From positions 1-36,863 of the IMG/VR virus record IMGVR_UViG_3300027114_000002: 36,863 nucleotides of DNA; one strand, written 5' to 3'. Each line of letters starts with the position of its first letter. Position 1 is the first letter of the stretch. Of the stretch, positions 100 through 36,863 are shown piece after piece. Position numbers and translations under genes: made by a program. The DNA is from a virus. The notes under the pieces are model-generated. The model saw nothing but the letters and a program-made list of their open reading frames with translations. It was not told the DNA's origin and made no database searches.

Positions 100-134
100 T
101 TATTATCAAAAACCTGGCGGTTGTCGGTTCATGA
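1..134 (+). CDS. 3' end of the wrap-around annealase-like gene that starts at 36347 (partial in this linearisation)
   Basis: The reading frame from 36347 continues through the 99-bp terminal overlap. It ends at TGA 132..134, which overlaps the ATG at 131 (ATGA). Confidence 0.6.
   Translation, partial: GITEKDAILAAVRGLVNREISSSNELTDDEITLIIKNLAVVGS
113..122 (-). promoter_or_regulatory. Copy F of the exact 10-mer AACCGCCAGG (reverse orientation), 9 nt upstream of the dCMP deaminase ATG
   Basis: The + strand reads CCTGGCGGTT. A second AACCG half-site follows on the minus strand (gAACCGacAACCGCCAGG). Confidence 0.5.
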
Positions 135-556
135 CTCGAATGTCTTGGGACAAATATGGATTGGAGATTGCGAGAGCAGCCTCCTATCGCAGTGAAGATC
201 CATATCTAAAAGTTGGTGCATGTGTTCTACGTGGGGATAGAAGCATAATAAGCATCGGCTACAATGGGGCTGCGCCTGGCGTCGATATTCCTTGGGGAGA
301 TAGAGACGCTAGGCGTGGTTTTGTAATACACGCAGAGGTGAATGCATTGCGGTATTGCACACCAGATCAAACAAAGGGTGGATATTTATATGTGACTCAT
401 CATCCTTGTTCTGAATGCATAAAGGTAATTGCTAGTTACGGAATTGCAAATGTTATGTATTCTGATTTGATAGATGGAGCAGTTTACGATCTATCTTCAA
501 TTGCTGAATTGGCAAAAGCTTTTAATATTTCATTAAAACAGGAGGTAAAACAATGA
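131..556 (+). CDS. Deoxycytidylate (dCMP) deaminase, cytidine/deoxycytidylate deaminase family
   Basis: It has the zinc-binding motifs HAEVNAL and HHPCSECIKVI (HAE...PCxxC). Its 141 aa length fits ComEB/T4 cd-type enzymes. Confidence 0.85.
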   Translation: MTRMSWDKYGLEIARAASYRSEDPYLKVGACVLRGDRSIISIGYNGAAPGVDIPWGDRDARRGFVIHAEVNALRYCTPDQTKGGYLYVTHHPCSECIKVIASYGIANVMYSDLIDGAVYDLSSIAELAKAFNISLKQEVKQ

Positions 557-984
557 GCGCTTTACAAATGATTTTGGATAATCAAAGAAAATTGCAGTTA
601 AAGTCATATGGAGTAGATATTACTACTTTTGATGAAGAACAAAGAGCAGCATATATCCGAGACATGTCTTTGGCATTAACAGATGAGTTGCACGAAGCAT
701 TAAATGAAACCGGTTGGAAACCATGGGCTACAAGTCGGCATATAAACCGATTGGCATTTATTGGTGAAATGATAGATGTACTTCATTTTTGGTGTAATTT
801 AGTTTTAGTTGCAAATGTCAATGAACAAGAGATTTTAGATGTCTATTTTGCTAAAGCCGAAAAGAATGCTAAGCGTCAATTGGTTGGTTACGACGGAGTA
901 GAAGGCAAGTGCAAGACTTGTGGACGAGCATATGATGATGCAGCAGTCCTATGTACTCCAATTGCTTGCGAGCACATAGAATGA
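553..984 (+). CDS. All-alpha NTP pyrophosphohydrolase (dimeric dUTPase/MazG/dCTPase-like) with a C-terminal Cys cluster
   Basis: It has the acidic metal-binding helices DELHEALNE and EMIDVLHF typical of the MazG/dimeric dUTPase superfamily. A GGAGG RBS lies upstream. The C-terminal tail reads CKTCG...C...C. Confidence 0.65.
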   Translation: MSALQMILDNQRKLQLKSYGVDITTFDEEQRAAYIRDMSLALTDELHEALNETGWKPWATSRHINRLAFIGEMIDVLHFWCNLVLVANVNEQEILDVYFAKAEKNAKRQLVGYDGVEGKCKTCGRAYDDAAVLCTPIACEHIE

Positions 985-1979
985 GTTACGTCTTAGATGA
1001 TGTAGTCACCTCGTTTACAGATCGGATTGCAAGTCATAGATCTGCTTGGCCAAGAATGCAGAAATGCATGGTTGATGATGCGCTTAACACTAAATCTGAG
1101 ATTGCTTTTGGCAATGATCAACTTGTTAAAGAAAACACATGGTTAGTATCGACTCCTATGGAATTCAAAGGTGAAGTCTTTAATCTATTTGGTGGTTACA
1201 CAAAAGAGACTAGAGATAGAATTGCTAGAGTTTTAGATATGGATCTTGCCAATATTAAAGCTTTGGACATGCCTATTGGCGATATTGAAAGAATTCTTCG
1301 TCCACGTGCGGCAAAGACTGATTTTGACTTTACAGAATCAGAATGGTCAAAAATTCGTGATCTAATGAAATGCGAAGTTATCAAACACGAAGATCTTGTA
1401 TTAGATATTCAAAGAGTAGTTATCGGTGATTCTCATTCTATTTCAAGGTATAGAGCAAATACTGTTGTCTATCGTCACGATGGTTTAACACTTCACGGTT
1501 TAACGGAAAGAGGAGTCGAACCTTATCTTCCTGATTACTTTGTTCCACATTTAGTTATTTACGCAGGAAATGTAGACATTAGACATCATTTATGTAGACA
1601 GTTGGATCCTGAAGGTTCAGCACGTAGGTTGGTTAGTAATCTTAGAATGCATCTAGAATATATGCAGCAAAAAGGTAAAATAGGAACATTTGAAGTTACT
1701 GCACCCTATCCGATTGAGTTTGAAGAGCGTAAAATTCCAAAAACGGGATTTTACAAAGGTACAGCTTTTTATGGATCTCATCCAGCACGTGACAGAGTTC
1801 GTTCAGTCATGACAAACGAGATGAAATATCAGTTTGACAATGTTCATGAATGGCCAACTAATTGGTACATGATCGATCCAGAAGATTATGCAAAAACATA
1901 CATGGAAAAGCCTGGATCAGTCCATTTATCACCTGAGTTTTATGAATGGGATTTGGTTAACAATGCCGCAAATAACTGA
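981..1979 (+). CDS. Protein with a C-terminal SGNH/GDSL-type hydrolase-like domain
   Basis: The start overlaps the upstream stop (ATGA). Block I is VIGDSHS, block III is AGNVD, and the block V-like segment is VHLSPEFY. The N-terminal ~150 aa have no recognisable motif. Confidence 0.5.
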   Translation: MSYVLDDVVTSFTDRIASHRSAWPRMQKCMVDDALNTKSEIAFGNDQLVKENTWLVSTPMEFKGEVFNLFGGYTKETRDRIARVLDMDLANIKALDMPIGDIERILRPRAAKTDFDFTESEWSKIRDLMKCEVIKHEDLVLDIQRVVIGDSHSISRYRANTVVYRHDGLTLHGLTERGVEPYLPDYFVPHLVIYAGNVDIRHHLCRQLDPEGSARRLVSNLRMHLEYMQQKGKIGTFEVTAPYPIEFEERKIPKTGFYKGTAFYGSHPARDRVRSVMTNEMKYQFDNVHEWPTNWYMIDPEDYAKTYMEKPGSVHLSPEFYEWDLVNNAANN

Positions 1980-3015
1980 AACCATCTACTGGGAAGACTT
2001 TAAGAAGTATTATGACAAAGCTGCCATCTTGCAAACTATAAACATTGCAAGTGACAAAGGCCGTGATACTTCTGAAGATCTACATGTAGATGATCCTTTG
2101 CAACATCACATTACTATTTACGACACAGTAGATCGTGAGTTTGCCGGATTTAGCAATGCTATCCAGCAGATTTGGTATGGATCAAACAATCCAAAAAAAT
2201 GGCAAGTTGATAGTCGTTTTGATGGTTACAACTTGCATGCAATGGATTGGTTTTATCTTTTTATGATTCACAGAGTGACTGGATCAGGTGCTTCGTTTAG
2301 TTATGACCATGGATTTAGAAACAGTATACTTTCAGATATGGCTCTCAAAACTGATAACATGATTCATATGAGAAACTATGTCTTAAGTGAGATGAAAACT
2401 GGTAGACCAATTTTTACAAGTATTGGTAATCAGATTCCACAATTTCCTAAGCCAAATGCAGAGTATCCTCGTGGATCGCAACTTTACATTTCAGAATATA
2501 TGCCTCATTTGGTTAAAGATTTTTATACTCATTTGTCCTATAATCCATTGACGATGTCCATTAGAGATGGGGTTGATTGGATCAATGAATGGCACAAATC
2601 TCAAGGTCTTAAGTGTTTCCATTTTGTAATGACAGCATTTGTAATGGATGTTGCTCAATATTTCCCTACATTGATAGATCCATGGAGTCAAGTAAACTAT
2701 GGAAGCAATGCAATCAAGGCGTTGAATTTATTGTTTAAGAACGAAGGTTACAAGCAAAAAGACTTTTTAGATGCTGCAATGGAGATCATTTGTAATGAGT
2801 TTAGATCTCCTTACGATCCGCGCGACCATGAAAGAAACTTAGGTAAAGGATTAAGTTTAGAAGATGTTGCATGTGATTATGTACGTTACGTTGAATGTTA
2901 CGTACCAAAAGGTTATGAACATTTAGAACCTTGGCAAGTAACAAACAAATCACTGATTCCTCATCATGCAAAGCATTGGACATACCACAAACACTTGGAG
3001 GCTAAAAATGTTTAA
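1963..3015 (+). CDS. Hypothetical ~350 aa protein, a candidate base-modification enzyme by context only
   Basis: It is a long ORF with coding-like composition. The start is uncertain (ATG at 1942 or 1963). I recognise no catalytic motif with certainty, although an HRVTGSGASF segment is notable. Confidence 0.45.
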   Translation: MPQITETIYWEDFKKYYDKAAILQTINIASDKGRDTSEDLHVDDPLQHHITIYDTVDREFAGFSNAIQQIWYGSNNPKKWQVDSRFDGYNLHAMDWFYLFMIHRVTGSGASFSYDHGFRNSILSDMALKTDNMIHMRNYVLSEMKTGRPIFTSIGNQIPQFPKPNAEYPRGSQLYISEYMPHLVKDFYTHLSYNPLTMSIRDGVDWINEWHKSQGLKCFHFVMTAFVMDVAQYFPTLIDPWSQVNYGSNAIKALNLLFKNEGYKQKDFLDAAMEIICNEFRSPYDPRDHERNLGKGLSLEDVACDYVRYVECYVPKGYEHLEPWQVTNKSLIPHHAKHWTYHKHLEAKNV

Positions 3016-3895
3016 GATAACAGAAGACTCTTCGAGTAAGTATTCATACAAGTCACGTGAAGAATGGTTAGATCTTGCAGGCGATTGGGTTGATGAAACT
3101 CAAATGCCAAATATAGGTACATTTCACGGTGCAACAATATGGGACGATTCTGTAACTGGAGTTGGTACAAAAGGTCGTTGGGGAGATCTATTAGTTAAAA
3201 CTATGGAATCAGATCATCTGGTTTATGTACAACCTAGAGTCGGTTGGGCAGGAGTTTCATTAGCTGCTCTTGCAAAGAAATATAACAAAAAGTTAACATT
3301 GTTCATGCCTTCTTCAAAAGTTGTAAGTGACCATCAATTAGTTTGTATTGAAAGAGGGGCAAATCCAATCTTTCGAAGAATTGCAGCAATGCCAGTTCTA
3401 AACAAATATGCAAAAGATTGGGCAGAACAAAATAATGCTCAGTTTGTGCCATTTGGTTTGGATCATCCACTAGTTGTTGCGGCTGGAGTGAAATCAACAA
3501 TTCAACAATGGGGAGCTCGAGATGAACCAAGAGACGTTGTATCAGTTATTAGTACAGGAGTTCTCACGAGAACTCTCCAAATTGCTTGGCCAAATGCAAC
3601 CTTCCACGGAATTGCAGTTGCAAGAAACTTACATGCAGGAGAGATCGGAAGAGCGGACGTTACAACTTACCATAAAGCTTTCAGAGAAAAAGCTGAGTAT
3701 GCAGACAAGATCAATGAAGAGATCAACTCCGCGCCAACCTACGATTGCAAAGGTTTAGAAAGGTTTATGTTGGACAAAACATCTGCTCCTAAAACACCTT
3801 TAACTTTATTGTGGAATGTGGCAGGTGACGTAAAACCAGTTATAATGGACCATTCACAAGTTGATAGTTTCAGAGAATGGGGTGAGTTTAGATGA
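3008..3895 (+). CDS. PLP-dependent enzyme, fold type II (ACC deaminase/D-Cys desulfhydrase/TrpB-like)
   Basis: A GGAGG RBS lies 6 nt before ATG 3008. WDDSVTGVGTKGRWGDLL resembles the K(R/E)DD..GGNKxRK PLP-lysine motif. It is followed by a VYVQPRVGWAGVSLAALAKKYNKKLTLFMP Rossmann-like segment. Confidence 0.55.
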   Translation: MFKITEDSSSKYSYKSREEWLDLAGDWVDETQMPNIGTFHGATIWDDSVTGVGTKGRWGDLLVKTMESDHLVYVQPRVGWAGVSLAALAKKYNKKLTLFMPSSKVVSDHQLVCIERGANPIFRRIAAMPVLNKYAKDWAEQNNAQFVPFGLDHPLVVAAGVKSTIQQWGARDEPRDVVSVISTGVLTRTLQIAWPNATFHGIAVARNLHAGEIGRADVTTYHKAFREKAEYADKINEEINSAPTYDCKGLERFMLDKTSAPKTPLTLLWNVAGDVKPVIMDHSQVDSFREWGEFR

Positions 3896-4335
3896 TTACA
3901 ATCATCGAAGGTTCTGATGGAACAGGCAAAACAACTTATGCTCAAAAATTAACAGAACGATACAATGCACAATATTTGCATGCCGAACAACCAAGATCTA
4001 GATTATGGGTTGATGAATATATTCGACCATTAACTTCTAGTAACATGGTATTAGATCGATGGCATTTAGGTGAATTTGTATGGCCAAAGATTTTTGGAAG
4101 AGTATCATTATTTGATGAAACCACATTTGATTATTGCAATTGGGAACTTGCTAAACTTGGAGCTAGGTTAATCCTTTTAACAAGATCAGAAGATGCAATA
4201 GCTGAAGAATTATTAAGACGTGGCGAAGAAATGCAAATCGATGCAGTATTACATTCAAGATCTTTATTTGTAGAAGCTTTTAGACAAGTGAAATATTTAG
4301 ACAAAACAATAATCCATAGTGAGGTGGTTAGGTAA
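3892..4335 (+). CDS. P-loop nucleotide kinase, thymidylate kinase (Tmk)-like dNMP kinase
   Basis: IIEGSDGTGKTT matches the Tmk P-loop (EGxDGxGKTT). A DRW motif sits at the DRY/DRH position. LILLTRSEDAIAEELLRRGEE aligns with the Tmk lid region. At 147 aa it is short for the family. Confidence 0.7.
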   Translation: MITIIEGSDGTGKTTYAQKLTERYNAQYLHAEQPRSRLWVDEYIRPLTSSNMVLDRWHLGEFVWPKIFGRVSLFDETTFDYCNWELAKLGARLILLTRSEDAIAEELLRRGEEMQIDAVLHSRSLFVEAFRQVKYLDKTIIHSEVVR

Positions 4336-5144
4336 TGCATATAATTACAGAAAATCCAAGCGAAGCTTTAGAGTTAGCAACTCAGTATGTTATTGAACAT
4401 GGTGAAGCCATATCTCCTCGCGGAATGGTTACTAGAGAACTTCTTAATGTAACTTTACAAGTAGAAAAGCCATGGAACATACCTGTATCTATGGAAAACC
4501 GTAAACTAAATCATAATATCGGTATCAAAGAAGCCTTACAACTTGTTGGACAAGTTACGGATCCAGAAGCAATGACAAGTACCAGTCAAGTGTTTGGAAA
4601 GTTTATGGATAATGGAATACTTCATGGTGCTTATGGTCCGCGTATTCACGGTAATCTAAACAAAGTTGTTGAGCAGTTAAAAAAAGATTACTCTACAAGA
4701 CAAGCTGTTTTGACCATCTTTGATTCTAACAAAGATCTAAATGTTGATGTTAAAGATGTTCCTTGTACCTTAAACCTACAGTACTTTATTAGAGACAATA
4801 AGTTAATTGCTCGAACAAATATGAGAAGTAATGACGTATTTCTAGGTCTTCCATATGATTTAACTCAGTTTATTGCTTTACAAGGAGCAATTGCAAAAGC
4901 TTTAGATATTGAAATGGGTCAATACGTTCACGTTGTTGGAAGTATGCACATTTATGATGAACATATACCTCAAGCTCAATGGATTAAAGCATACTTCAAC
5001 GGATCATTCAAAGACTATGAACCAATGTGGACTGGCAATAATATTGGTGAAATCAGTCATACTGCAAGATCTATTCTTAAAGGTAACATTCCTGAACGTT
5101 TAACCCGTTTTGAAAGATTTTTAGCAGGTAAAATCAATGACTGA
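4335..5144 (+). CDS. Thymidylate synthase superfamily enzyme, predicted deoxycytidylate 5-hydroxymethyl- (or methyl-) transferase
   Basis: DVPCTLNLQYF carries the catalytic Cys. MRSNDVFLGLPYD aligns with E. coli ThyA QRSCDVFLGLPFN. GSMHIYDEH aligns with GGDTHLYSNH. Asp replaces the Asn177-equivalent residue. Confidence 0.8.
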   Translation: MHIITENPSEALELATQYVIEHGEAISPRGMVTRELLNVTLQVEKPWNIPVSMENRKLNHNIGIKEALQLVGQVTDPEAMTSTSQVFGKFMDNGILHGAYGPRIHGNLNKVVEQLKKDYSTRQAVLTIFDSNKDLNVDVKDVPCTLNLQYFIRDNKLIARTNMRSNDVFLGLPYDLTQFIALQGAIAKALDIEMGQYVHVVGSMHIYDEHIPQAQWIKAYFNGSFKDYEPMWTGNNIGEISHTARSILKGNIPERLTRFERFLAGKIND

Positions 5145-5271
5145 ACCTGTGGCACGATGTGAAGCATGTGGATCTTGGACTTATTTACATGCAATAGATA
5201 AACTGATGGGTCAACCACATTTTTGCAATAATTGCAAAGCCAGACAGAAAGGAAAGAAACATGCTGCCTAA
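5137..5271 (+). CDS. Small zinc-ribbon protein (44 aa)
   Basis: MTEPVARCEACGSW...FCNNCKARQKGKKHAA contains two CxxC pairs. The ATG overlaps the upstream stop. It falls below the ORF-track size cut-off. Confidence 0.45.
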   Translation: MTEPVARCEACGSWTYLHAIDKLMGQPHFCNNCKARQKGKKHAA

Positions 5272-5614
5272 TCAAAGTGAAGTTGTCAAGCGCCTGAGCG
5301 AATTATCGCGTATGCTCGATGCTGCAACTGAAGAAATAGCAGCATTAGATGACCAATCTGTTCGTGCAAAAGGATCTTATGAAGTAGCATATGCAAAATC
5401 CTTTTTAGAATCCAATGGATCAATGGATGTCAGGCGCCAAGAAGCAATTCTTGCTTGCGCTGATCTGCGTCTTGCAATGGAAATTGCAGAAGCTCAAGTC
5501 AGAGCAATAAAAGAAAGAATTAACACATTGAGGTCACAAATATCCATTGGTCAATCATTATCAGCTGCAATTAGACAACAATTTAGTGCTGAAGGCGTAG
5601 GTCAATATACATGA
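5261..5614 (+). CDS. Hypothetical coiled-coil protein
   Basis: The ORF is tightly packed between its neighbours and has a helical, heptad-like composition. Confidence 0.5.
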   Translation: MLPNQSEVVKRLSELSRMLDAATEEIAALDDQSVRAKGSYEVAYAKSFLESNGSMDVRRQEAILACADLRLAMEIAEAQVRAIKERINTLRSQISIGQSLSAAIRQQFSAEGVGQYT

Positions 5615-5877
5615 GATTTAGAAGCAAGAAAATGGCTAAGAAATATGTTGAAAGGCGCAAACTAGTTGCACAAATGCTAGAAACTTATCCCATATGCCAA
5701 AGATGCAATGCAAAGGCGTCCGAAGAAATTCATGAGGTTCTCAGTAGAGCTCGTGGTGGAGATATTTTAGACATTGAGAACTGCAGAGCTTTATGTCATA
5801 TGTGTCACTTCTGGATTACAACAAATCCAGCAGAAGCGCTAAAAACAGGCTGGTTAAAGAATTCCTGGGATAAATGA
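5611..5877 (+). CDS. HNH endonuclease (small)
   Basis: CQRCNA...EEIHEVLSRARGG...NCRALCHMCHFWI shows a CxxC...H...N...CxxCH HNH/zinc pattern. Confidence 0.65.
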   Translation: MRFRSKKMAKKYVERRKLVAQMLETYPICQRCNAKASEEIHEVLSRARGGDILDIENCRALCHMCHFWITTNPAEALKTGWLKNSWDK

Positions 5878-6041
5878 TGCCAACTTATGACTACAAATGC
5901 CAAAAATGCGGAATCACAGTCGAAGTTACACACTCAATTTCAGAACACGGTCCTAGATGTGATTGTGGAGAAGTTATGCAAAAAGTTTTTACCGTTGTAC
6001 CCGCTATTTTCAAAGGTGACGGATGGGGAGGACAAAAATGA
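5877..6041 (+). CDS. FmdB-family zinc-ribbon protein (54 aa)
   Basis: MPTYDYKCQKCG...RCDCGE matches the N-terminal YxYxCxxCG signature of the CxxC_CxxC_SSSS family. Confidence 0.6.
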   Translation: MPTYDYKCQKCGITVEVTHSISEHGPRCDCGEVMQKVFTVVPAIFKGDGWGGQK

Positions 6042-6376
6042 CCAACTTATCTAGAAAAAGACGAGGTAGAGAAACAGAATTGATTTTTGCTGAGTATTTG
6101 AAGACACAAGGTTGGACTTATGCTGAAGCGACAAGTTCATCAGCTGCAGGAACCGACATTAAAGGAGTTATCGGAGTTGATTGGGAACTTAAAGCCAGAG
6201 CGGACTTTGATCCTAGATCAGCAATGAAACAACAACAAAAACGCATCAAAGAAGGCGTAATCCCCATCGCTGTTTTAAGGCAGAATGGACAAGGTGAAGC
6301 CGATATTGAGAATTGGCCAGCATGTGTTCCAGTAAGCATTATGATCCAATTACTTAAAGAGGCGGGTTATTTGTGA
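6038..6376 (+). CDS. PD-(D/E)XK nuclease, Holliday-junction-resolvase-like
   Basis: A GGGGAGG RBS lies 7 nt before ATG 6038. GTDIKGVIGVDWELKAR gives a D...ExK motif, preceded by an E in RETELIF. Confidence 0.5.
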   Translation: MTNLSRKRRGRETELIFAEYLKTQGWTYAEATSSSAAGTDIKGVIGVDWELKARADFDPRSAMKQQQKRIKEGVIPIAVLRQNGQGEADIENWPACVPVSIMIQLLKEAGYL

Positions 6377-6651
6377 CAATTAGAGATTTATCATTTGATC
6401 GAGAAGTTGTTCCTTGGATGAAAGAAGGCAATTGTACTGATCCATCAATTGATCCAGATTGGTTTTTCCCAGATAGTGAACACGAAAACAACATAGAACA
6501 AAGAATGGCTTTGGATATGTGCAAAACATGTCCAGTAAAAATGAATTGCTTAGGTTATGCACTCAACAATTGGCCAGTATATGGCATTTGGGGTGGAATG
6601 CGAAATAAACAACTAAAAGATCTAGCGAGACAAATAAAGGAGCAAAAATGA
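6373..6651 (+). CDS. whiB: WhiB-family transcriptional regulator
   Basis: It has the four-Cys pattern NCTD...CKTCPVKMNC (C-x(n)-C-x2-C-x5-C). It also has DPDWFFP and a C-terminal GIWGG turn followed by a basic tail. Confidence 0.9.
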   Translation: MTIRDLSFDREVVPWMKEGNCTDPSIDPDWFFPDSEHENNIEQRMALDMCKTCPVKMNCLGYALNNWPVYGIWGGMRNKQLKDLARQIKEQK

Positions 6652-7046
6652 GTGCAGCAATAACAATTAAAGGTCGTGTTGGTAAAGACATGGACATAAA
6701 GTTTACACAACAAGGTAAAGCGTATGTTCCATTTAGTGTTGTGTCCAATGTACGTAAAAAAGTTAATGAAGAATGGGTCGATGCTGACACAAGTTGGTGG
6801 GAATGCAAAGCTTTTGGAGGTTATGCCGAGGCTCTTGTAGATAACATCAAACGAGGCGATCTGGTGACTATTACAGGAACAATTAAGCAAACAACATGGA
6901 TTGACAAAGACGGAAATAAGCGCTCGTCATATGAGGTCCTGGTAGATACTATTGCAAAACAGATTGTAGTTCAAAAGTATCACGGAACACCAAGAACAAA
7001 GAATGCAGATCCTGTAACATGGGATCCTACCGAAGGAGTATTTTAA
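6648..7046 (+). CDS. ssb: Single-stranded DNA-binding protein (OB fold)
   Basis: ITIKGRVGKDMDIKFTQQGKAYVPFSV...WWECKAFGGYAE...KRGDLVTITGTIKQTTW is the typical SSB OB-fold pattern. Confidence 0.8.
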   Translation: MSAAITIKGRVGKDMDIKFTQQGKAYVPFSVVSNVRKKVNEEWVDADTSWWECKAFGGYAEALVDNIKRGDLVTITGTIKQTTWIDKDGNKRSSYEVLVDTIAKQIVVQKYHGTPRTKNADPVTWDPTEGVF

Positions 7047-7507
7047 TGTCAGTTAAAGCTATGACCTATGTATGGGAAAACTCTCCCTACAATGGCAATG
7101 CTTTAATTGTCCATTTAGCATTGGCAGATCATTGTGACGATCAAGGCATTTGTTGGCCAAGTCAGCAATATTTGGCAGATAAGTGCAAGATAAGTGTCAG
7201 ACAAATTCGCAGAATCATTCACCAAATGATTGCTGATAACTATTTGTTTATAGAACAGCATTCGAGAGCTGGTATTTCTAATAATCGTTACAGATTGTTA
7301 TTTAGAAAGCCGCAGGTCACTGATGTCCTGTCCACAGAATATGACGACTCTAAACGTCCTGCGGCTGAGGTCACAGCTGTGGCCAGCGGTAGAGGTCAAG
7401 CTGATGGCCACCCTAATCATCATATAACCATCAATAATCACCAGAGAAAAGGTCCACCAGAAGAAGTTAAATTGATGATAGAAAGGCTAAGAAAGAAAAA
7501 TGGATAA
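7046..7507 (+). CDS. Winged-helix/HTH DNA-binding protein (replication-initiator or regulator-like)
   Basis: A GAAGGAG RBS precedes ATG 7046. The segment ALIVHLALADHCDDQGICWPSQQYLADKCKISVRQIRRIIHQM is characteristic of HTH_36-type phage proteins. Confidence 0.55.
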   Translation: MSVKAMTYVWENSPYNGNALIVHLALADHCDDQGICWPSQQYLADKCKISVRQIRRIIHQMIADNYLFIEQHSRAGISNNRYRLLFRKPQVTDVLSTEYDDSKRPAAEVTAVASGRGQADGHPNHHITINNHQRKGPPEEVKLMIERLRKKNG

Positions 7508-8111
7508 ATGCCTTAGTTGTCGTGGGGTAAGCGAGAAAGGTGCTTGTCCACATTGCAGAAGAAGATTAAAAAAAATGCTTAATGAGTTAATTGCATTCAT
7601 TGATCTTCTCATTGCTAGTCCTTCCCTAAGACAACAGGTATCTTCCAAACAAGAAGGTAGAGGTTCATTATCTGATAGATCAGTAATCAATGTCCAAATT
7701 GTTGATCTTATTTCTAAAACAGGTGTTCAAAGTGTTCTACAATCATGGTGTGAGTATGTTGTAGAAACAAGAAGTCTTAACACTGATTGTCTTAAGTCTA
7801 CTAAACAAACAAACAAACTTCACATATTGCATAACGTATTGGACACTCACACCGATTGGTTAGCTGATGGTGAATTATGGACTGATTACTACAATGAGAT
7901 CAAAGAACCATGGACAACATTAAGACGCATTATCTATGGTGAGAGAAAACCACCTGAAGCAGTTAAATGTCCTGTACAAGATTGCATTGGTAGTTTAAGA
8001 TTAGAACCTAATGGTGATGTCCATTGTATACACGATAAGACACATCAATGGGCATATGAGCAATGGTCAAGATTAGCCAAACTTATGGTAGAAACCTCTG
8101 TACAAACATGA
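7500..8111 (+). CDS. Hypothetical protein with N-terminal and C-terminal zinc-finger-like Cys/His clusters
   Basis: The clusters are CLSCRG...CPHCRRRL and CPVQDC...HCIHDKTH. Confidence 0.5.
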   Translation: MDKCLSCRGVSEKGACPHCRRRLKKMLNELIAFIDLLIASPSLRQQVSSKQEGRGSLSDRSVINVQIVDLISKTGVQSVLQSWCEYVVETRSLNTDCLKSTKQTNKLHILHNVLDTHTDWLADGELWTDYYNEIKEPWTTLRRIIYGERKPPEAVKCPVQDCIGSLRLEPNGDVHCIHDKTHQWAYEQWSRLAKLMVETSVQT

Positions 8112-8162
8112 TGTTGTGTCATACAATAGGAACTACCGAGCTACAGCTATCTAACAAATCGG

Positions 8163-8477
8163 ATGCTAATGAATAAACCATGTTTAGATTGTGGTGTGTT
8201 AGCAAACAAACCTAGATGTCCTATGTGCAATAAGAAGTATCAGAAGTTTAAAGCAACCTCTCGTCCTTCACGTGCAGATAGGGGTTACGATGCAAATTGG
8301 AAAAGGTTATCAAAACAACTAAGACTATTGCAACCTTATTGTTCTATTTGTAAAGCAACCAACGATTTGACTGTGGATCACATAACACCGTTATCGAGTG
8401 GTGGTCTCACAGTTGAATCGAACTTGCAAGTTCTATGTAGACGATGCAACAGCAGCAAAGGTACTTCCTCTTCCTGA
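8163..8477 (+). CDS. HNH endonuclease (packaging-associated type, adjacent to terminase)
   Basis: Motifs are CLDCG...CPMC, then YCSICKATNDLTVDHITPLSSGG...NLQVLCRRCNSSKG. Confidence 0.85.
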   Translation: MLMNKPCLDCGVLANKPRCPMCNKKYQKFKATSRPSRADRGYDANWKRLSKQLRLLQPYCSICKATNDLTVDHITPLSSGGLTVESNLQVLCRRCNSSKGTSSS

Positions 8478-8627
8478 ATAACATAATGTTATATTAAATC
8501 CCATAGAGGGCCAACGGGTGGTATGGTATGGCCTAAAAGTACATGCATAAACCGCGCTGGATACCCCGCATCCATGGGAGCGTGCAAAGTATCAAAATTA
8601 TTGATTTGACCAAACTGGAGGAATTTG

Positions 8628-9089
8628 ATGACCGCGGGTCGTCCACGCAAACCTATCGAACAGAAGCGCAAAACAGGCCGAACTCCTACAACGGATTCAG
8701 GCGGTCGCAAACTTCCTGATGTTCAGAAGGTCACTGTCTTGCCGATGGCCGATGGTATTCCGACTCCTCCTATGGATCTAGGTCTAGAAGGCCGAGAGCT
8801 TTGGGGAAAAGCTTGGGATCGTGCAATCACTTGGCTTTCTCCTGTAAGTGATTTGACACAAGTTCATCATGCTTGTCGAGTGGCAGATGATCTTAATTTG
8901 GCAAGAACAGTTTACAATACGACACGTGACTCACAAGACGGGCGGCTTGTGGTTGCACTAAGTAAATCTTTCCATGAGGCTTTGGCCTCGTTAGGATTTA
9001 CACCAACATCTCGCTCGCAATTAGGCGTAGCGGAGGTTAAGCGTGTCACAGCTCTCGAACAACTTATTGCTACCAAACGAGCCAAGTAA
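8628..9089 (+). CDS. terS: Terminase small subunit (P27-like)
   Basis: The N-terminus TAGRPRKPIEQKRKTGRTP is typical of the P27 family. A GGAGGA RBS lies upstream, and the gene sits directly before terL. Confidence 0.75.
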   Translation: MTAGRPRKPIEQKRKTGRTPTTDSGGRKLPDVQKVTVLPMADGIPTPPMDLGLEGRELWGKAWDRAITWLSPVSDLTQVHHACRVADDLNLARTVYNTTRDSQDGRLVVALSKSFHEALASLGFTPTSRSQLGVAEVKRVTALEQLIATKRAK

Positions 9090-10605
9090 TTCTTGGCCTC
9101 CTAAGTGGCTTACGCCTGTATCTGAAGAAGATCAATTAAGAGGCGATGGACCTGTCTTCAAACAGTTTGCTGAAACAGTTTGTCGTGTTACAAAAGATTC
9201 ATTAGGCGGTCAAGCAGGCGAGTTAATTCGTTTTCGCAGTTGGCAAGAGAAGCTTCTTAACCATGCTTTGGCTAGAAAAGAAAACGGTAGATTTAAGCAC
9301 CGCATTGCCTTGATCGGAATGGCACGCAAGAATGGCAAGTCTGCTCTTGGTGCTTCTGTTGGTCTAGCAGGTTTAACACTAGGCGGACAAGGTTCTGAGA
9401 TCTATTCATGCGCAGCAGATAGAGAGCAAGCAAGAATTGTGTTCGGTACTGCTAAACGAATGGTTGAACTAGACGAAGAACTGTCTAAAATGTTTACGCT
9501 TTACCGCGATGCAATCGAATATAAGGATACAGGTTCTGTCTATAAAGTCCTCTCGGCAGAGGCTTACACAAAAGAAGGTCTCAATCCGTCACCTCTTGTG
9601 ATCTTCGATGAAGTTCATGCGCAGCCAAATCGCGAACTTTGGGATGTAATGTCTCTTGCCGGAGGCGCTAGAGCAGACTCTTTGTTGTTTGGTATTACTA
9701 CGGCAGGTGTAAAAACACAGACCGATGGTCAAGATTCTTTGTGTTATTCACTTTACCAATATGGTCAGCAGTTAGTTAAAAAAGAATTAGAAGATCCGTC
9801 ATTCTTCTTTGCTTGGTGGGAACCAAAGAATGTAGAGGCAGACCATCGAGAACGATTCATGTGGGAAGAATCAAACCCAGGTTTCAACGACATTGTCGAC
9901 TCTGAAGATTTTGAGTCTTCAGTGCTCAGAACACCAGAAGCAGAATTTCGAACTAAAAGAACTAACTGCTTTGTTTCAACAGCTACTGCATGGCTTCCTG
10001 CCGGAAGCTGGGATGCATTGGTTGACAAAGACAGAATGCCAATGCAAGGTGAAGATGTCATTCTCGCATTCGATGGAGCCTTTTCTAATGACTCAACAGC
10101 TCTAATTGCGTGGCTTATAGGTTCTGAAAAGCCACATTTAATGGTCGTAGGACTATGGGAAAGACCACTTGATGCTGATCAAGCATGGCACGTGCCTGTT
10201 GCAGAGGTTGAAAAGACGATTGTTGATGCTTGTAGAGATGGCAGATTTAACGTAAAAGAGATTGTTTTTGATCCTGCACGATGGAACAGAACTTTCATGG
10301 TGCTAGATGAAGATGGTTTACCTTGCGTTTCATATCCTAACTCTGCAGAACGTATGGTTCCTGCCACACAAAAGTTTTATGAAGCAGTAGTTAACCAGTC
10401 ATTTACACACGATGGAGATGAACGTCTTGCACGACATGTGGCAAACTGTGTAACAAAACAATCATCACGAGGTGTCATGGTTGCTAAGGCATCATCTAGA
10501 AGAAAAGTAGATGCTGCGGTTGCTTCTATTTTTGGTTATGACCGAGCAACTCAACCTCCTGCACCTAAAGAACCAGTTGCAAAATATTTCTCAATACAAG
10601 TATGA
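9043..10605 (+). CDS. terL: Terminase large subunit
   Basis: The Walker A-like segment is GMARKNGKSAL and the Walker B-like segment is LVIFDEVH. The size (520 aa) and position fit terL. The start is uncertain because it overlaps terS by 47 nt. Confidence 0.85.
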   Translation: MSQLSNNLLLPNEPSNSWPPKWLTPVSEEDQLRGDGPVFKQFAETVCRVTKDSLGGQAGELIRFRSWQEKLLNHALARKENGRFKHRIALIGMARKNGKSALGASVGLAGLTLGGQGSEIYSCAADREQARIVFGTAKRMVELDEELSKMFTLYRDAIEYKDTGSVYKVLSAEAYTKEGLNPSPLVIFDEVHAQPNRELWDVMSLAGGARADSLLFGITTAGVKTQTDGQDSLCYSLYQYGQQLVKKELEDPSFFFAWWEPKNVEADHRERFMWEESNPGFNDIVDSEDFESSVLRTPEAEFRTKRTNCFVSTATAWLPAGSWDALVDKDRMPMQGEDVILAFDGAFSNDSTALIAWLIGSEKPHLMVVGLWERPLDADQAWHVPVAEVEKTIVDACRDGRFNVKEIVFDPARWNRTFMVLDEDGLPCVSYPNSAERMVPATQKFYEAVVNQSFTHDGDERLARHVANCVTKQSSRGVMVAKASSRRKVDAAVASIFGYDRATQPPAPKEPVAKYFSIQV

Positions 10606-10613
10606 GGAGCATC

Positions 10614-10754
10614 ATGAAAAAAATTGACTTTTCCTTATTTGTAGAATTGGCAGGAGTAATTCTTGTTGCAGTCGGGGTCGCTATGTTCTCTGTTCCACTT
10701 GCCTTTATTACGGTAGGCGGATTTCTTATTTGGGCTACAGAAAAGGCTAACTGA
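10614..10754 (+). CDS. Small membrane protein (46 aa)
   Basis: A GAGGAG RBS precedes the ATG. The sequence has two hydrophobic segments (LAGVILVAVGVAMF and LAFITVGGFLIW). It falls below the ORF-track cut-off. Confidence 0.5.
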   Translation: MKKIDFSLFVELAGVILVAVGVAMFSVPLAFITVGGFLIWATEKAN

Positions 10755-13112: not shown

Positions 13113-13127
13113 AGAAAGTTGTAACTA

Positions 13128-35602: not shown

Positions 35603-36363
35603 AACGTATTGAAACAAAACGTGGTCATAAATATGAACTCGATGGTCAACCTGTCAAAGGTGTGACAACTCTTATCGGTTCTGGTATGCCTAAACCTGCG
35701 CTTCCATATTGGAGTGCAAAATTAGTTGCAGAATATGTCTTCGATAATTTTGCAAACCTTCCAAACTTGATGACTCGTGAACGAGAAGAAGCCGTAAAGT
35801 TCTTGAAAATGATTCCTTGGAATCAACGAGACAAAGCGGGAGCACGAGGTACAGAAATCCATGCAATTGCTGAAACTATTATTCATGGTGGAGAAGCTGA
35901 AGTTGCTGGTGAGTTTGCTCAGTATGTCGATGGCTATGTTGAATGGCTAGATCAATGGGAAGTCATTCCTGTTTTGACTGAGAAAGTTGTAGCAAACCGT
36001 GTTCATGGTTATGCAGGAACTTTTGATGCCATTCTTAAGTTCGGCAGCGGTCCATTAACTGGCAAAACTTATCTTTGTGATTGGAAGACAAGTTCTGGAG
36101 TTTATGGAGAAATGGCAATGCAAATTGCAGCTTATGCAAATGCAGATTTCTACCTCGACGAGGAAGGCAATGAAATACCTATGCCCGAAGTTGATGGATT
36201 AGGAATTGTGCATGTATCTCCAAATGGAACAACATTTCATGAGGTGACAGATGTTGATCTTGCATGGGATTCGTTTCTAACTGTTATTGATTTGGCAAAC
36301 AGATTAGAACATATTGAAGGTTTATTAACACAACTAGGGGGATTAAATGGACAAGCGTCTTGA
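35593..36363 (+). CDS. PD-(D/E)XK exonuclease (RecB/Cas4/YqaJ-like)
   Basis: Motifs are GTEIHAIAE, GYAGTFDAIL, LCDWKTS (D...D/ExK) and QIAAY (QxxxY). Confidence 0.7.
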   Translation: MGLERIETKRGHKYELDGQPVKGVTTLIGSGMPKPALPYWSAKLVAEYVFDNFANLPNLMTREREEAVKFLKMIPWNQRDKAGARGTEIHAIAETIIHGGEAEVAGEFAQYVDGYVEWLDQWEVIPVLTEKVVANRVHGYAGTFDAILKFGSGPLTGKTYLCDWKTSSGVYGEMAMQIAAYANADFYLDEEGNEIPMPEVDGLGIVHVSPNGTTFHEVTDVDLAWDSFLTVIDLANRLEHIEGLLTQLGGLNGQAS

Positions 36364-36863
36364 AAATTATGTAGATGTACCACAGCGAATAAAACTGTTT
36401 TATGAGAAATATCCAGAAGGTTCACTGCAAATGGATCCTGATCTGCAGTTTCAGACAGTTGGAGATCAGATTATTGTGATTGGTAGAGCTTATGCTTACC
36501 GTCATCCAGGAGATGAAAAGCCCGGTATTGGTACAGCTCAAGAGTATTTACCAGGAAAAACTAATTTTACTCGTGGCAGTGAGATCCAAAACCTTGAGAC
36601 AAGTTGCTGGGGTAGAGCAATTGGAGCATTAGGTATAGGCATAGATAAAGCAATTGCAAGTAAAGAAGAAGTTGAACTTGCAATGGAACGCAATAAACCA
36701 GATAAAGTCATGATGAAACGTGCAAATCCTGGTTTGAAGCAAATAGTAGAGTTGCTAGGAGCAAAAGGCATCACGGAGAAGGATGCTATCCTAGCGGCAG
36801 TACGCGGTTTAGTTAACCGTGAAATAAGTTCGAGCAATGAACTGACTGATGATGAGATCACGC
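36347..36863 (+). CDS. Putative ssDNA-annealing/recombination protein (Rad52/Sak-like), 5' part that continues at 1..134
   Basis: An AGGGGGA RBS lies upstream. GIGTAQEY...RGSEIQNLETSCWGRAIGALGIGI resembles the annealase core. The gene follows an exonuclease. It is missing from the ORF track because it runs off the window end. Confidence 0.45.
   Translation, partial: MDKRLENYVDVPQRIKLFYEKYPEGSLQMDPDLQFQTVGDQIIVIGRAYAYRHPGDEKPGIGTAQEYLPGKTNFTRGSEIQNLETSCWGRAIGALGIGIDKAIASKEEVELAMERNKPDKVMMKRANPGLKQIVELLGAKGITEKDAILAAVRGLVNREISSSNELTDDEIT
36765..36863. repeat. Right copy of the 99-bp terminal overlap
   Basis: It is identical to 1..99. Confidence 0.95.

Follow-up and report, generated by a model that had tools for sequence, protein, structure and literature searches.

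The locus and its genomic setting

The window analysed here, i.e., the whole 36,863-nt stretch of an IMG/VR virus record, carries seven overlapping plus-strand ORFs at positions 131–5144 (g1–g7; Table 1), essentially at the coordinates given in a preliminary description of this DNA, which had inferred seven consecutive, translationally coupled genes. Indeed, all seven ORFs are present and every junction overlaps, by ATGA at g1/g2 (553–556), g2/g3 (981–984) and g5/g6 (3892–3895), by TAATG at g6/g7 (4333–4337), and by 17 nt and 8 nt at g3/g4 (1963–1979) and g4/g5 (3008–3015), respectively. The start of g3 was set to 981 rather than 951 because many homologues are 332 aa long, and that of g5 to 3008 rather than 2966 because its homologues have 295 aa.

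The seven-gene array is not free-standing, given that the ATG of g1 overlaps the stop codon of an upstream ORF. The ends of the window share an exact 99-nt terminal overlap, so that the genome is circular or complete at 36,764 bp, which places the start of the upstream ORF at 36347, across the junction from g1. The C-terminal 43 residues of this ORF are encoded at 3–134, the ORF is preceded by an exonuclease gene (35593–36363), and its intact 183-aa orthologue lies directly 5′ of g1 in a relative (L013). The phage itself is a small freshwater actinobacterial phage, siphovirus-like and of 37 kb. More than 40 IMG/VR contigs carry these genes in identical order, at 60–98% amino-acid identity, as does a contig with a g3-g4 fusion inside an otherwise identical seven-gene operon; thus, the cluster is no chance juxtaposition.

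Table 1. Features of the locus
Feature	Position	Strand	Evidence
Upstream 183-aa ORF, unknown function	36347..36863, wraps circular junction, ends 134	+	Coupled translationally to g1
g1, dCMP deaminase (zinc deaminase; HAE and PCxxC motifs)	131..556	+	PF00383 E 1.5e-19; phrog_174 E 1.7e-37
g2, all-alpha dNTP pyrophosphatase (dimeric dUTPase/MazG-like)	553..984	+	PF08761 E 3e-12; phrog_18650 E 3e-34
g3, two-domain protein with SGNH-hydrolase-fold C-terminal domain	981..1979	+	AF2 model pLDDT 91; Foldseek
g4, all-helical protein, predicted member of the aGPT-Pplase / amino-acid:DNA transferase / HMUDK_hel structural superfamily	1963..3015	+	AF2 pLDDT 94; Foldseek
g5, fold-type-II PLP enzyme	3008..3895	+	phrog_7093 E 1.2e-27; PF00291 weak (E 0.0018)
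g6, short Tmk-like P-loop kinase (EGSDGTGKTT; LDRWH)	3892..4335	+	PF02223/AAA_33 N-terminal matches; phrog_761
g7, thymidylate-synthase-family pyrimidine hydroxymethylase, dCMP-type active-site residues	4335..5144	+	PF00303 E 2e-22

Nucleotide-level genes and the target base

The identities previously assigned to five of the products, namely, a dCMP deaminase (g1), an all-alpha NTP pyrophosphatase (g2), a fold-type-II PLP enzyme (g5), a Tmk-like dNMP kinase (g6) and a thymidylate synthase (TS)-family C5 hydroxymethylase/methylase homologue (g7), hold up in the profile searches of Table 1. Within 10 kb of the g3-g4-g5 trio, a dCMP deaminase is encoded in 9 of 15 diverged lineages. Judging from sequence similarity, g2 is a homologue of the T4 dCTPase/dUTPase gp56 (25% identity over the full length, E 1e-11), although homology does not fix its substrate specificity, and its 53% identity to ‘dUTPases’ of Microbacterium phages without known modification counts against the pathway proposed below.

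The g6 kinase, the only Walker-A ORF found in a Walker-A scan of the genome, probably acts at the nucleotide level, on hm-dCMP. In iterative HMM searches, members of its family were found to adjoin Asp-type TS homologues, among them one in actinophage DSL-LC01, which has no trio, whereas M6 gp54 and the ViI-type kinases were not recovered. Another member is gp29 of Microbacterium phage Brahms (E 5e-25); the 5-hmdU DNA kinases (5-HMUDKs) and g6 also belong to different PHROGs. Thus, the possibility raised earlier that g6 is related to 5-HMUDKs can be set aside in favour of the Tmk-like nucleotide-kinase family. Homologues of M6 gp54 or ViI-type kinases were found in none of 80 loci, i.e., a 5-HMUDK homologue does not accompany the trio, and for many trio loci the nearest P-loop kinase, if any, is more than 6 kb away.

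The best PDB match of g7 is the CMP 5-hydroxymethylase MilA (E 4e-21). We aligned g7 with ThyA of E. coli, gp42 of T4 and three hydroxymethylases that act on dUMP; the roles of ThyA N177, L143 and D169 are restated in PMC13326640. In g7, the catalytic Cys lies within KDVPC, Asp occupies the L143 position, D169 is retained (RSND) and Asp is found at the N177 position (GLPYD). The replacement of both L143 and N177 by Asp rules out an ordinary ThyA. The dCMP hydroxymethylase T4 gp42 has the same pattern, with Asp at the L143 and N177 positions and D169 kept, whereas Asn stands at the N177 position in the dUMP hydroxymethylases from M6, from a ViI-like and from an SPO1-like phage. In diverged loci, the TS homologues that adjoin the trio show Asp there in every readable motif, T4-gp42-like versions included. 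Furthermore, two relatives (L063 and L076) encode ThyX and dCMP deaminase inside the same cluster, so that they make dTMP normally, and the presence of ThyX in some relatives argues for cytosine, rather than thymine, as the target base. We consider this inference likely to be correct, in the absence of nucleoside analysis for the phage or any relative. The Asp rule for cytosine specificity, however, rests on mutagenesis of only a few enzymes, and hm-dUMP might in principle arise from hm-dCMP through the action of a dCMP deaminase.

The g3-g4-g5 module

The products of g3 and g4 have no matches in Pfam or NCBIfam searches. The assignment of g3 as an SGNH-hydrolase-like protein is upheld by structure comparison: the top Foldseek matches in the PDB are all SGNH/GDSL esterases (2hsj, E 1e-4, probability 1.0, ~190 aligned columns). 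An N-terminal alpha/beta domain of unknown type (~1–140) precedes the SGNH domain. Across the family, which comprises 477 clusters at 50% identity, the invariant residues are G149-D150-S151-H152, G196-N197-x-D199 and S313-x-H315; g3 thus retains the Ser/Asn/His catalytic set usual in esterases and acyltransferases but lacks the block V Asp (G312 in its place).

The relationships of g4 rest on predicted structure alone. Its top 11 Foldseek matches in BFVD all belong to the aGPT-Pplase/AADT/HMUDK_hel superfamily, led by A0A6J5L8T5, an ‘Amino acid:DNA transferase domain’ protein (E 1e-17, TM 0.82), and including the SP10 5-hmdU DNA kinase (E 1e-4), Pplase1 (E 1e-3) and PhiW-14 HMUDK_hel (E 0.014). 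By contrast, none of 48 family members matched Pfam, and neither a PDB sequence search nor profile-profile comparison with clade-2 AADTs gave a match. The link to aGPT-pyrophosphorylases considered in the preliminary description is therefore supported as structural superfamily membership only, not by Pfam or profile-profile matches, and g4 represents a new clade without a Pfam signature. Its sole invariant Cys, C304, lies in the motif L-E300-D-V-x-C304-D; C304 and E300 may correspond to the catalytic Cys and Glu of M6 gp51 and PaMx11 gp46, judging only from motif resemblance (ExVxC) and relative position, without superposition of the models.

The closest characterised relative of g5 is M6 gp52, a proven DNA-acting decarboxylase (PMC8989533) that falls in the same PHROG (phrog_7093, E 2e-159). 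The two are connected in hhalign (E 1e-4) and both have the C-terminal YDxK...WNxG motifs. The predicted Schiff-base lysine of g5 is K55 (G-T-K-G-R), which the family profile aligns with the PLP-binding lysine in cysteine synthases (SVKCR). Whether g5 likewise decarboxylates its substrate is, by our inference, an evenly balanced question.

The three genes are tightly linked. In all 15 g4 lineages (≤70% identity, adequate flanks), g3 is located within 3 kb of g4, with g5 nearby. Proteins in which g3 (N-terminal) is fused to g4 (C-terminal) were observed in seven independent representative clusters (A1 HMM E-values down to 4e-152), and in one protein, present in two assemblies, g3 is joined to a genuine HMUDK_hel domain (PF18723, E 4.5e-11), paralleling the fusion of a P-loop kinase to a helical domain in SP10 gp186. 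Thus, g3 is an obligate partner of g4. The linkage of the trio with hydroxymethylase genes holds on phage backbones that differ widely, and only 5 matches, all on MAG contigs, were found in 185,579 species genomes. Given the strict co-occurrence and the fusions, we read the trio as one functional unit, a widespread, uncharacterised three-enzyme module; with its virus restriction and co-occurrence, the notion that the middle genes are housekeeping AMGs can be rejected.

A proposed two-stage pathway and its relation to known systems

These observations support the original proposal of a pyrimidine-C5 hypermodification operon that combines T4/SPO1-like nucleotide genes with a middle trio for elaboration of the C5 substituent. 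We propose, with a probability of roughly 0.6 and without chemical evidence, that the operon encodes a two-stage pathway to C5-hypermodified cytosine, in which a T4-like supply of hmC is followed by kinase-independent tailoring on DNA. In the first, pre-replicative stage, g2 would reduce competing dNTPs (dCTP and/or dUTP) to monophosphates, g7 would convert dCMP to 5-hydroxymethyl-dCMP, g6 would phosphorylate the latter towards the triphosphate, and g1 would divert part of the dCMP to dUMP, keeping up the dTTP supply. No recognisable DNA polymerase is encoded among the phage ORFs scanned, so that the host replisome would incorporate hm-dCTP.

In the second, post-replicative stage, the glycosylase-like helical protein g4 would bind DNA and flip out 5hmC, while g3, replacing the step performed by the P-loop 5-hmdU DNA kinase in thymine systems, would turn the 5-CH2OH into a leaving group, most likely by O-acylation through Ser151/His315. 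The g4 protein, possibly via Cys304/Glu300, would then exchange this group for a nucleophile, probably a free amino acid reacting through its side chain. The appended amino acid would be remodelled by g5 (Lys55), most likely by decarboxylation, leaving an amine on the C5 substituent as a barrier to host nucleases. The final product is inferred only, above all as regards what is appended. The activating role of g3 is tentative, somewhat less likely than not, and neither an acyl donor nor a precedent for acyl transfer to DNA is known to us that would back such chemistry.

It is possible, albeit unlikely, that pathway and 5hmC target are as proposed but g3 is not the activating enzyme. In one version, g4 would be merely a DNA-binding, base-flipping scaffold and g3 would esterify the 5-CH2OH directly with an acyl or aminoacyl group, comparable to 5hmC carbamoylation or glucosylation; in the other, g3 would act downstream of g4, as an esterase or amidase unmasking what has been attached, either ahead of the PLP step or following it. 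The catalytic set kept in g3 is compatible with such roles, acyl transfer to a hydroxyl acceptor requires no prior activation, g3 also pairs or fuses with HMUDK_hel domains, of which those of SP10 accompany a different catalytic domain, and there are precedents both for DNA hypermodification with aminoacyl-tRNA as the donor (Mom; PMC13219725) and for direct O-derivatisation of 5hmC (PMC8670742). However, the invariant Cys and flanking acidic residues of the g4 family would be needless in a pure scaffold, and g5 could not decarboxylate an amino acid esterified through its alpha-carboxyl group. The g3-g4 fusions do not discriminate between the versions because fusion of consecutive enzymes fits either order.

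To our knowledge, all characterised enzymes of the g4 superfamily (AADT) and the characterised PLP enzymes act on 5-hmU-derived DNA, which speaks for thymidine hypermodification of the M6, ViI or PhiW-14 type, a scenario we regard as less likely still. Here, 5-hm-dUMP would be made from dUMP by g7 directly, or g1 would deaminate hm-dCMP, with g2 as a dTTPase/dUTPase, g6 as a divergent 5-hmdU DNA kinase, g4 as an amino-acid:DNA transferase, g5 as a decarboxylase and g3 in accessory tailoring. The inventory matches that of the reconstructed dapT pathway (dCMP deaminase, dUMP hydroxymethylase, dUTPase-fold dTTPase/dUTPase, 5-HMUDK and Pplase2; PMC13458397) and fits the M6/ViI pathways (PMC8989533), g5 shares its PHROG with M6 gp52, and the kinase gene is directly 5′ of the hydroxymethylase gene, the two being adjacent in ViI-like phages as well. 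Nevertheless, g7 and all readable homologues in the clusters have Asp at the uracil/cytosine-discriminating position where three dUMP hydroxymethylases of T-modifying phages have Asn, ThyX in the L063 and L076 clusters argues that dTTP is wanted, and g6 fits poorly as a DNA kinase, given its separate PHROG, the failure of its HMM to reach 5-HMUDKs, its presence in phages without the trio and the many trio loci without a nearby P-loop kinase.

That only stage 1 concerns DNA (plain 5hmC or pool balancing), with the trio acting on a free nucleotide before replication or on another small molecule in unrelated auxiliary metabolism, would suit the lack of a DNA kinase, the mostly small-molecule substrates of fold-type-II PLP enzymes and SGNH esterases, and the nucleoside-antibiotic pathway of MilA, the closest solved relative of g7, but is very improbable considering that the g4 fold family is DNA-glycosylase-like, its characterised members flipping bases from duplex DNA (PMC11472151), that M6 gp52, the nearest characterised relative of g5, is a DNA-acting enzyme, that the trio is virus-restricted and hydroxymethylase-linked across disparate phages, and that a bulky dNTP would have to be accepted by the host polymerase. 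We infer with considerable confidence that the trio acts on DNA rather than on nucleotides.

The preliminary description knew of no characterised pathway with this enzyme combination, and we likewise found no matching system in the literature searched. In the thymidine hypermodification systems (M6, ViI, PaMx11, PhiW-14, SP10 and SH-Ab 15599), dUMP hydroxymethylase is followed by 5-hmdU DNA kinase, aGPT-Pplase2/AADT and a PLP decarboxylase or other tailoring enzymes (PMC5889632, PMC8989533, PMC11472151, PMC13458397). The proposed cytosine pathway resembles these in supplying a hydroxymethyl-pyrimidine before replication and elaborating it on DNA afterwards, in the shared helical superfamily of g4 and PHROG of g5, in the accompanying dCMP deaminase and dUTPase-fold pyrophosphatase, and in the fusion of pathway enzymes (cf. 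SP10 gp186 and metagenomic kinase-PLP-Pplase fusions). It differs in the cytosine-type Asp of g7, in the invariant and sometimes fused SGNH-fold partner of the helical protein in place of any 5-HMUDK homologue, in a g4 clade undetected by Pfam aGPT-Pplase/AADT/HMUDK_hel models or profile comparison, and in the ThyX genes beside the cluster in some relatives.

The T-even 5hmC pathway comprises gp56 dCTPase, gp42 dCMP hydroxymethylase, gp1 dNMP kinase, cd dCMP deaminase and alpha/beta-glucosyltransferases. Its logic, as suggested previously, is recognisable here in the gp56-homologous g2, the gp42-like Cys/Asp/Asp active-site pattern of g7, and a nucleotide kinase and dCMP deaminase that imply the same rewiring of the pool. 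Unlike gp1, however, g6 is Tmk-like, tailoring involves g3, g4 and g5 rather than sugar transfer (the scan of non-structural ORFs gave no glycosyltransferase), and the genome is that of a small actinophage without a polymerase among the scanned ORFs.

Post-replicative derivatisation of 5hmC is known for 5-carbamoyloxymethylcytosine (PMC8670742), and TET-dependent 5hmC clusters include P-loop kinase and aGPT-Pplase genes, where a route through 5hmC phosphorylation is only hypothesised; Burke et al. had speculated that kinase/Pplase-type enzymes may use 5hmC (PMC8256090). As in those systems, 5hmC in DNA would be the acceptor for further tailoring, but it would originate from a nucleotide-level hydroxymethylase, as opposed to the C5-methyltransferase and TET of the TET-dependent clusters, with neither a P-loop DNA kinase nor a carbamoyltransferase, and with an SGNH-like partner not described in either study. 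Three points go beyond the preliminary description, namely, a target base that is most likely cytosine, the obligate and sometimes fused pairing of the SGNH protein with the helical protein, and the lack of a DNA kinase. If the cytosine model is true, an esterase-like protein would stand in for the DNA kinase of all known thymine pathways.

Gene cluster, genome and conserved core

The preliminary description had read seven translationally coupled genes as a hydroxymethyl-pyrimidine hypermodification cluster, and our analysis both supports and sharpens this reading: the cluster is probably a cytosine-directed system, with a pair formed by its SGNH-fold and helical proteins and without a DNA kinase. 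The proposed layout is borne out as well, as seven plus-strand ORFs with overlapping junctions encode a deaminase (g1), a pyrophosphatase (g2), an SGNH-fold protein (g3), a helical protein (g4), a fold-type-II PLP enzyme (g5), a Tmk-like kinase (g6) and a hydroxymethylase of the thymidylate synthase (TS) family (g7). Judging from the lengths of homologues, 981 and 3008 are the favoured putative starts of g3 and g5, respectively. The stop codon of an upstream ORF, which extends past the left edge of the window, overlaps the ATG of g1, so that the gene array extends upstream. Given the exact match between the 99-nt termini, the window covers one whole phage genome, 36,764 bp long and either circularly closed or terminally redundant; upon closure, the ORF upstream of g1 begins at 36347, after an exonuclease gene, and is 183 aa long, a length taken from the relative L013. 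A scan of the cluster detected no excess of promoter-like or terminator-like sites over shuffled sequence, and neither the cluster as a nucleotide query nor g4 in a tblastn search had a match among 50,697 phage records.

Features of the cluster and of the genome that carries it
Feature	Position	Strand	Detail
Seven-gene cluster	131-5144	+	g1-g7
g1/g2 junction	553	+	ATGA overlap
g2/g3 junction	981	+	ATGA overlap
g3/g4 junction	1963-1979	+	17-nt overlap
g4/g5 junction	3008-3015	+	8-nt overlap
g5/g6 junction	3892	+	ATGA overlap
g6/g7 junction	4333-4337	+	TAATG overlap
Replication/recombination genes	5261-8111 and 29835-36363		O-like initiator, SSB, RusA-like resolvase, HNH, two exonucleases
WhiB-like gene	6373-6651		
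Collagen-like protein gene	11097-13112		671 aa, Gly-X-Y repeats
HslV/proteasome-like peptidase gene	31114-31767		
DUF932 protein gene	31820-32785	-	
Window termini	1-99 and 36765-36863		99 nt, exact match

The phage is a small siphovirus-like actinophage encoding WhiB, SSB, an O-like initiator, a RusA-like resolvase, TerL, an endolysin and two exonucleases. The WhiB-family regulator, the low GC content (~0.39 for the window) and the lake-metagenome relatives suggest that the host is a low-GC freshwater actinobacterium. No DNA polymerase, glycosyltransferase or methyltransferase was found among the ORFs scanned, which excluded the presumably structural 13-28 kb block; in the absence of a polymerase from this set, a modified dNTP would need to be accepted by the host replisome. 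Elsewhere in the genome, the collagen-like protein, of the tail-fibre type, is encoded where the GC content rises locally to 0.50-0.55 (genome average ~0.39), and the DUF932 gene, the sole minus-strand one among the long ORFs scanned, adjoins the peptidase gene.

The conserved core of the cluster is the trio g3, g4 and g5 rather than all seven genes. When IMG/VR was scanned by pattern for the g4 family, 225 loci were confirmed, and 80 of these were retained. In tblastn searches with all seven proteins, the complete gene order was kept in close relatives, and in distant ones the three genes of the trio were still neighbours, arranged as g3-g4-g5 or g3-g5-g4. Once g4 was clustered at 70% identity and sufficient flanking sequence was required, g3 lay no more than 3 kb from g4, with g5 nearby, in all 15 lineages; a TS homologue was located within 10 kb in 9 of the 15, and so was a dCMP deaminase (9 of 15). 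Uncultured aquatic phages carry the trio very widely, and the backbones on which it is found extend from 37-kb actinophages to T4-like genomes and ones of jumbo size. Only five hits, all on MAG contigs, were obtained in 185,579 species genomes, indicating that the module is virus-restricted; with this restriction and the strict linkage, the possibility that the middle genes are host-derived auxiliary genes of amino acid metabolism is rejected.

Proteins in which g3 (N-terminal) is fused to g4 (C-terminal) form seven independent clusters among the long matches to the g3 profile, and one of them, P0361, belongs to an operon that otherwise equals the one described here (deaminase, pyrophosphatase, fusion, PLP-like enzyme, kinase and an Asp-type TS, i.e., one with Asp at the position of Escherichia coli ThyA N177). 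Furthermore, a protein from two separate assemblies combines Methyltransf_21, g3 and HMUDK_hel, the helical domain of 5-hmdU DNA kinases (5-HMUDKs; PF18723, E 4.5e-11). At locus L011, these 3 components are separate genes near an Asp-type TS, an inositol-1-phosphate synthase and two ATP-grasp enzymes, and the L011/L012 region (5588-15393) also contains guanylate-kinase-like and Tmk-like genes, a layout that suggests a family of related, chemically distinct cytosine modifications. Being fused both to g4 and to HMUDK_hel, g3 emerges as a general, physically coupled partner of this helical superfamily. Its place beside the helical protein is that of the P-loop kinase in SP10 gp186, and it likewise corresponds to the kinase position in the described kinase-PLP-Pplase fusions (PMC8989533). 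In L088 (2632-4729), a relative of the T4 gp42 type, the neighbours of the trio are a MazG/PRA-PH pyrophosphatase and a protein with the N-terminal domain of dATP/dGTP diphosphohydrolases (PF18909, E 8.5e-31), which hints that the purine nucleotide pool may be manipulated too.

Target base and nucleotide-level enzymes

The inference on the target base rests primarily on g7, whose closest solved relative (best PDB match) is the CMP hydroxymethylase MilA. In this enzyme family, Asn at the ThyA N177 position specifies uracil and Asp cytosine, an acidic residue at the L143 position accompanies hydroxymethylation, and Asn at the D169 position marks 5-hydroxycytosine synthases (PMC13326640). In a direct alignment, the L143 and N177 positions of g7 are both occupied by Asp (GLPYD in the latter case), and D169 is retained; this pattern, catalytic Cys included, is the signature of the T4 gp42 dCMP hydroxymethylase. 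By contrast, the dUMP hydroxymethylases M6 gp58, May gp169 (ViI-like) and Goe26 ThyA (SPO1-like) have Asn at the N177 position, so that g7 does not meet the dUMP-specific signature of the M6 and ViI thymidine systems. The TS homologues that adjoin diverged relatives of the trio in IMG/VR and other contigs, down to 24-40% identity, have Asp at this position wherever the motif is readable, and several of them are clearly gp42-like. Moreover, the diverged relatives L063 and L076 encode ThyX and a dCMP deaminase within the same cluster, implying that dTMP synthesis continues, which suits replacement of cytosine rather than of thymine. On these sequence grounds, cytosine is quite likely the target base. 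Nevertheless, deamination of hm-dCMP to hm-dUMP remains possible and cannot be excluded from sequence. Synthesis of 5-hydroxycytosine by g7 is rejected, as the diagnostic D169N substitution is absent, and an ordinary ThyA, which would have undermined the original proposal, is rejected on the basis of L143D, N177D and the match to MilA.

Among isolates, the nearest hydroxymethylase is that of actinophage DSL-LC01, which is of the Asp type and is flanked by a g6-family kinase and a dCMP deaminase; a glycosyltransferase gene lies ~7 kb downstream, and the trio is absent from the 16.8 kb examined.

The comparison with 5-hmdU DNA kinases that had been suggested for g6 (3892..4335) does not show it to be a homologue. 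It is the sole ORF of the genome found to contain a Walker A motif, within a Tmk-type P-loop (EGSDGTGKTT) accompanied by DRW, and its match to the M6 kinase gp54 is confined to the P-loop. An iterative HMM of the g6 family gathers Tmk-like kinases adjoining Asp-type hydroxymethylases, including the one in the trio-less region of DSL-LC01, and retrieves neither M6 gp54 nor two ViI-type (May) kinases; g6 belongs to phrog_761 whereas 5-HMUDKs belong to phrog_800 and phrog_139; and gp29 of Microbacterium phage Brahms is a g6-family member that lies beside a g2 homologue without the trio. A role of g6 as a DNA kinase is accordingly rejected as the primary reading, and g6 is best read as a nucleotide-level hm-dCMP kinase. 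Phmmer searches with the 5-HMUDKs M6 gp54 and May gp170 found no match in the 80 trio loci or the window, and in many trio loci a P-loop kinase is missing within 6 kb. The presence of a 5-HMUDK, as a homologue of M6 gp54, ViI gp67/gp243 or PhiW-14 gp37, is thus a feature of the M6 and ViI systems that the cluster does not meet. Given the lack of such a homologue and the nucleotide kinase family of g6, the DNA-level module operates without a 5-HMUDK.

The remaining two genes fit nucleotide supply. The g1 product is a dCMP deaminase (PF00383, E 1.5e-19), and that of g2 a pyrophosphatase of the dimeric dUTPase/MazG type (PF08761) that shows full-length homology to the T4 dCTPase/dUTPase gp56 (25% identity, E 1e-11) and closer (53% identity) to proteins of Microbacterium phages, which are actinophages, annotated as dUTPases. 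Whether g2 prefers dCTP or dUTP is not readable from its sequence, and a gp56-type dCTPase role would rest on homology alone. In Brahms (L094, 3953-5021), the g2 homologue (53% identity) adjoins the g6 homologue (HMM E 5e-25), and both a TS homologue and the trio are absent from the 8.4 kb examined; the same pair is found in cluster-EA-type Microbacterium phages, which are apparently unmodified.

The g3-g4-g5 module and its predicted chemistry

In the absence of sequence matches for g3 and g4, their families were collected and aligned, and structures were predicted. A single-sequence search with g3 found no match in Pfam, NCBIfam or PDB, and a profile search of PDB with its family yielded only spurious uS15 matches. 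The model (pLDDT 91), however, has a C-terminal domain resembling SGNH/GDSL esterases (Foldseek against PDB, probability 1.0, target-normalised TM 0.5-0.6), and the invariant residues include G149-D150-S151 with the Ser of GDS(H), G196-N197-x-D199 with the Asn of GxND, and the C-terminal His H315. This domain therefore meets the superfamily criterion of a flavodoxin-like fold plus block I, III and V residues, although G312 stands in place of the block V Asp, which, together with the lack of a Pfam SGNH match, makes g3 a divergent member; nothing similar to the N-terminal ~140 residues was found. Searched against 1.84 billion representative proteins, the g3 profile matched 477 clusters at 50% identity.

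T4-like phages of Aeromonas and Stenotrophomonas also encode g3 homologues, located between motA and nrdC.10; these isolates are possible cultivable entry points for the study of g3. In Aeromonas phage 31 (L001, NC_007022, 6959-9346), this homologue is a fusion protein of 795 aa with a weak match to HMUDK_hel (E 0.0036) at its C-terminus, and a sodium:solute symporter gene adjoins; in Aeromonas phage 25 (L002, NC_008208, 3776-7047), the neighbour is a UDP-galactopyranose mutase gene.

For g4, there was no match in NCBIfam, none in PDB by single-sequence search, none in Pfam at E<=1 even with 48 family members included, and none in a PDB profile search with the family. Hhalign comparison of the family with M6 gp51 or with a 7-sequence alignment of clade 2 amino-acid:DNA transferases (AADTs, a clade of the aGPT-Pplases) gave probabilities below 1.5%, and comparisons with the C-terminus of phage 31 ORF233c and the L011 HMUDK_hel protein were insignificant. 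By Pfam and profile, g4 is thus not a member of the AADTs typified by M6 gp51, PaMx11 gp46, ViI gp247 and PhiW-14 gp109. The all-helical AF2 model (pLDDT 94) tells a different story: its best 11 Foldseek matches in BFVD are all viral members of the AADT/aGPT-Pplase/HMUDK_hel superfamily (E 1e-17 to 0.3, TM <=0.82), so that the predicted structure meets the criterion of the glycosylase-like all-helical fold common to AADTs, Pplase1 and HMUDK_hel. Hence, of the relationship between 1963..3015 and the aGPT-pyrophosphorylases that had been suggested for checking, the structural part stands, whereas Pfam and profile comparison do not support it; in view of the insignificant hhalign results, we drop the sequence-level link to AADTs and retain the structural one.

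The AADT active site comprises an essential Cys and a neighbouring Glu (E-T-V-L-C in M6 gp51; Cys247 in PaMx11 gp46). Only one Cys, C304, is invariant in the g4 family; it lies in the motif L-E-D-V-x-C-D, in which E300, D301 and D305 are invariant too; the E(-4)...C spacing is the same as in M6 gp51, and the relative positions are 87% and 85% of the length, respectively. No significant alignment or superposition links the two motifs, though, and in the best hhalign match, itself insignificant, the M6 motif falls opposite another g4 segment, so that equivalence of C304 to the AADT active-site Cys is not established.

The affinities of g5 are clearer. NCBIfam has no model for it, but both g5 (E 1.2e-27) and M6 gp52 (E 2e-159) match phrog_7093, and M6 gp52 is a PLP decarboxylase shown to be active on amino-acid-modified DNA (PMC8989533). 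The two proteins have C-terminal YDxK...WNxG motifs in common, and the invariant Lys55 of the g5 family lines up with the lysine that binds PLP in cysteine synthases (O-acetylserine sulfhydrylases). Thus, g5 meets the M6 gp52/ViI gp226 family criterion, with a Schiff-base lysine, decarboxylase activity itself being inferred. Domains of the g5 type also occur at residues 397-631 of an 810-aa annotated "DNA modification methylase" (Erythrobacter phage vB_EliS_R6L gp1, L003; HMM E 1e-42) and after two ParB/sulfiredoxin genes in Microcystis phage Mae-JY30 (L004, 5986-6696; E 4e-38), which may represent another DNA-modification setting of this family.

In thymine pathways, a kinase phosphorylates 5-hmU, the AADT cysteine attacks C6 and the phosphate departs to leave an exocyclic methylene, an amino-acid nucleophile is added, and PLP enzymes decarboxylate the appended amino acid when its alpha-amine is free (PMC8989533, PMC11472151). 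By analogy with this chemistry and from the natural fusions, we infer 3 steps: g3 would prepare the 5-CH2OH of flipped-out 5hmC, O-acylation being the type of reaction expected of a Ser/His SGNH enzyme; g4 would carry out the substitution, with C304 as the only invariant Cys; and g5 would decarboxylate the resulting product. As the cluster lacks a radical-SAM isomerase, the amino acid would be linked via its side chain, as in ViI O-serinyl-T, leaving the alpha-amine free for the PLP enzyme. Alternatively, g3 could be the transferase proper or a trimming esterase instead of the activating enzyme, a question that remains open. The boldest reading still compatible with these data is that an SGNH enzyme complexed with, and often fused to, a new helical clade provides kinase-independent activation or derivatisation of 5hmC in DNA and, with the PLP enzyme, yields a chemically undescribed, amino-acid-derived hypermodified cytosine; we put its probability at about 0.45. 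Without nucleoside data, every functional statement beyond fold and family is a prediction.

Implications and relation to known systems

To our knowledge, every amino-acid or polyamine hypermodification of phage DNA that has been characterised biochemically affects thymine, with a P-loop DNA kinase taking the first step. Should the module work as proposed, this chemistry would reach cytosine, a new SGNH-fold enzyme class would act on DNA bases alongside a new, Pfam-invisible clade of base-flipping transferases, and g3, g4 and g5, given their very wide distribution, would serve as markers by which modified genomes can be predicted from metagenomic data. Modified cytosines matter for evasion of restriction and CRISPR, for nanopore base-calling, for the bias of sequencing libraries against phages that carry them and for the repertoire of enzymes available for modifying DNA.

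In the open-access literature, we found no paper joining SGNH proteins to hypermodification and no description of a 5hmC kinase or AADT product, although an unseen description cannot be excluded. The published systems considered comprise thymine hypermodification (PMC5889632, PMC8989533, PMC11472151, PMC13458397), glycosylated 5hmC and 5hoC (PMC13326640), 5-carbamoyloxymethyl-C (PMC8670742) and TET-dependent clusters, where action of kinase/Pplase enzymes on 5hmC has been no more than a speculation (PMC8256090). Unlike the T4 hmC pathway, the cluster includes no glycosyltransferase, nor do the other non-structural ORFs scanned (13-28 kb left out). Where the thymine systems employ a kinase and an AADT, it has a new obligate pair, an SGNH-fold protein and a putative, divergent helical transferase.
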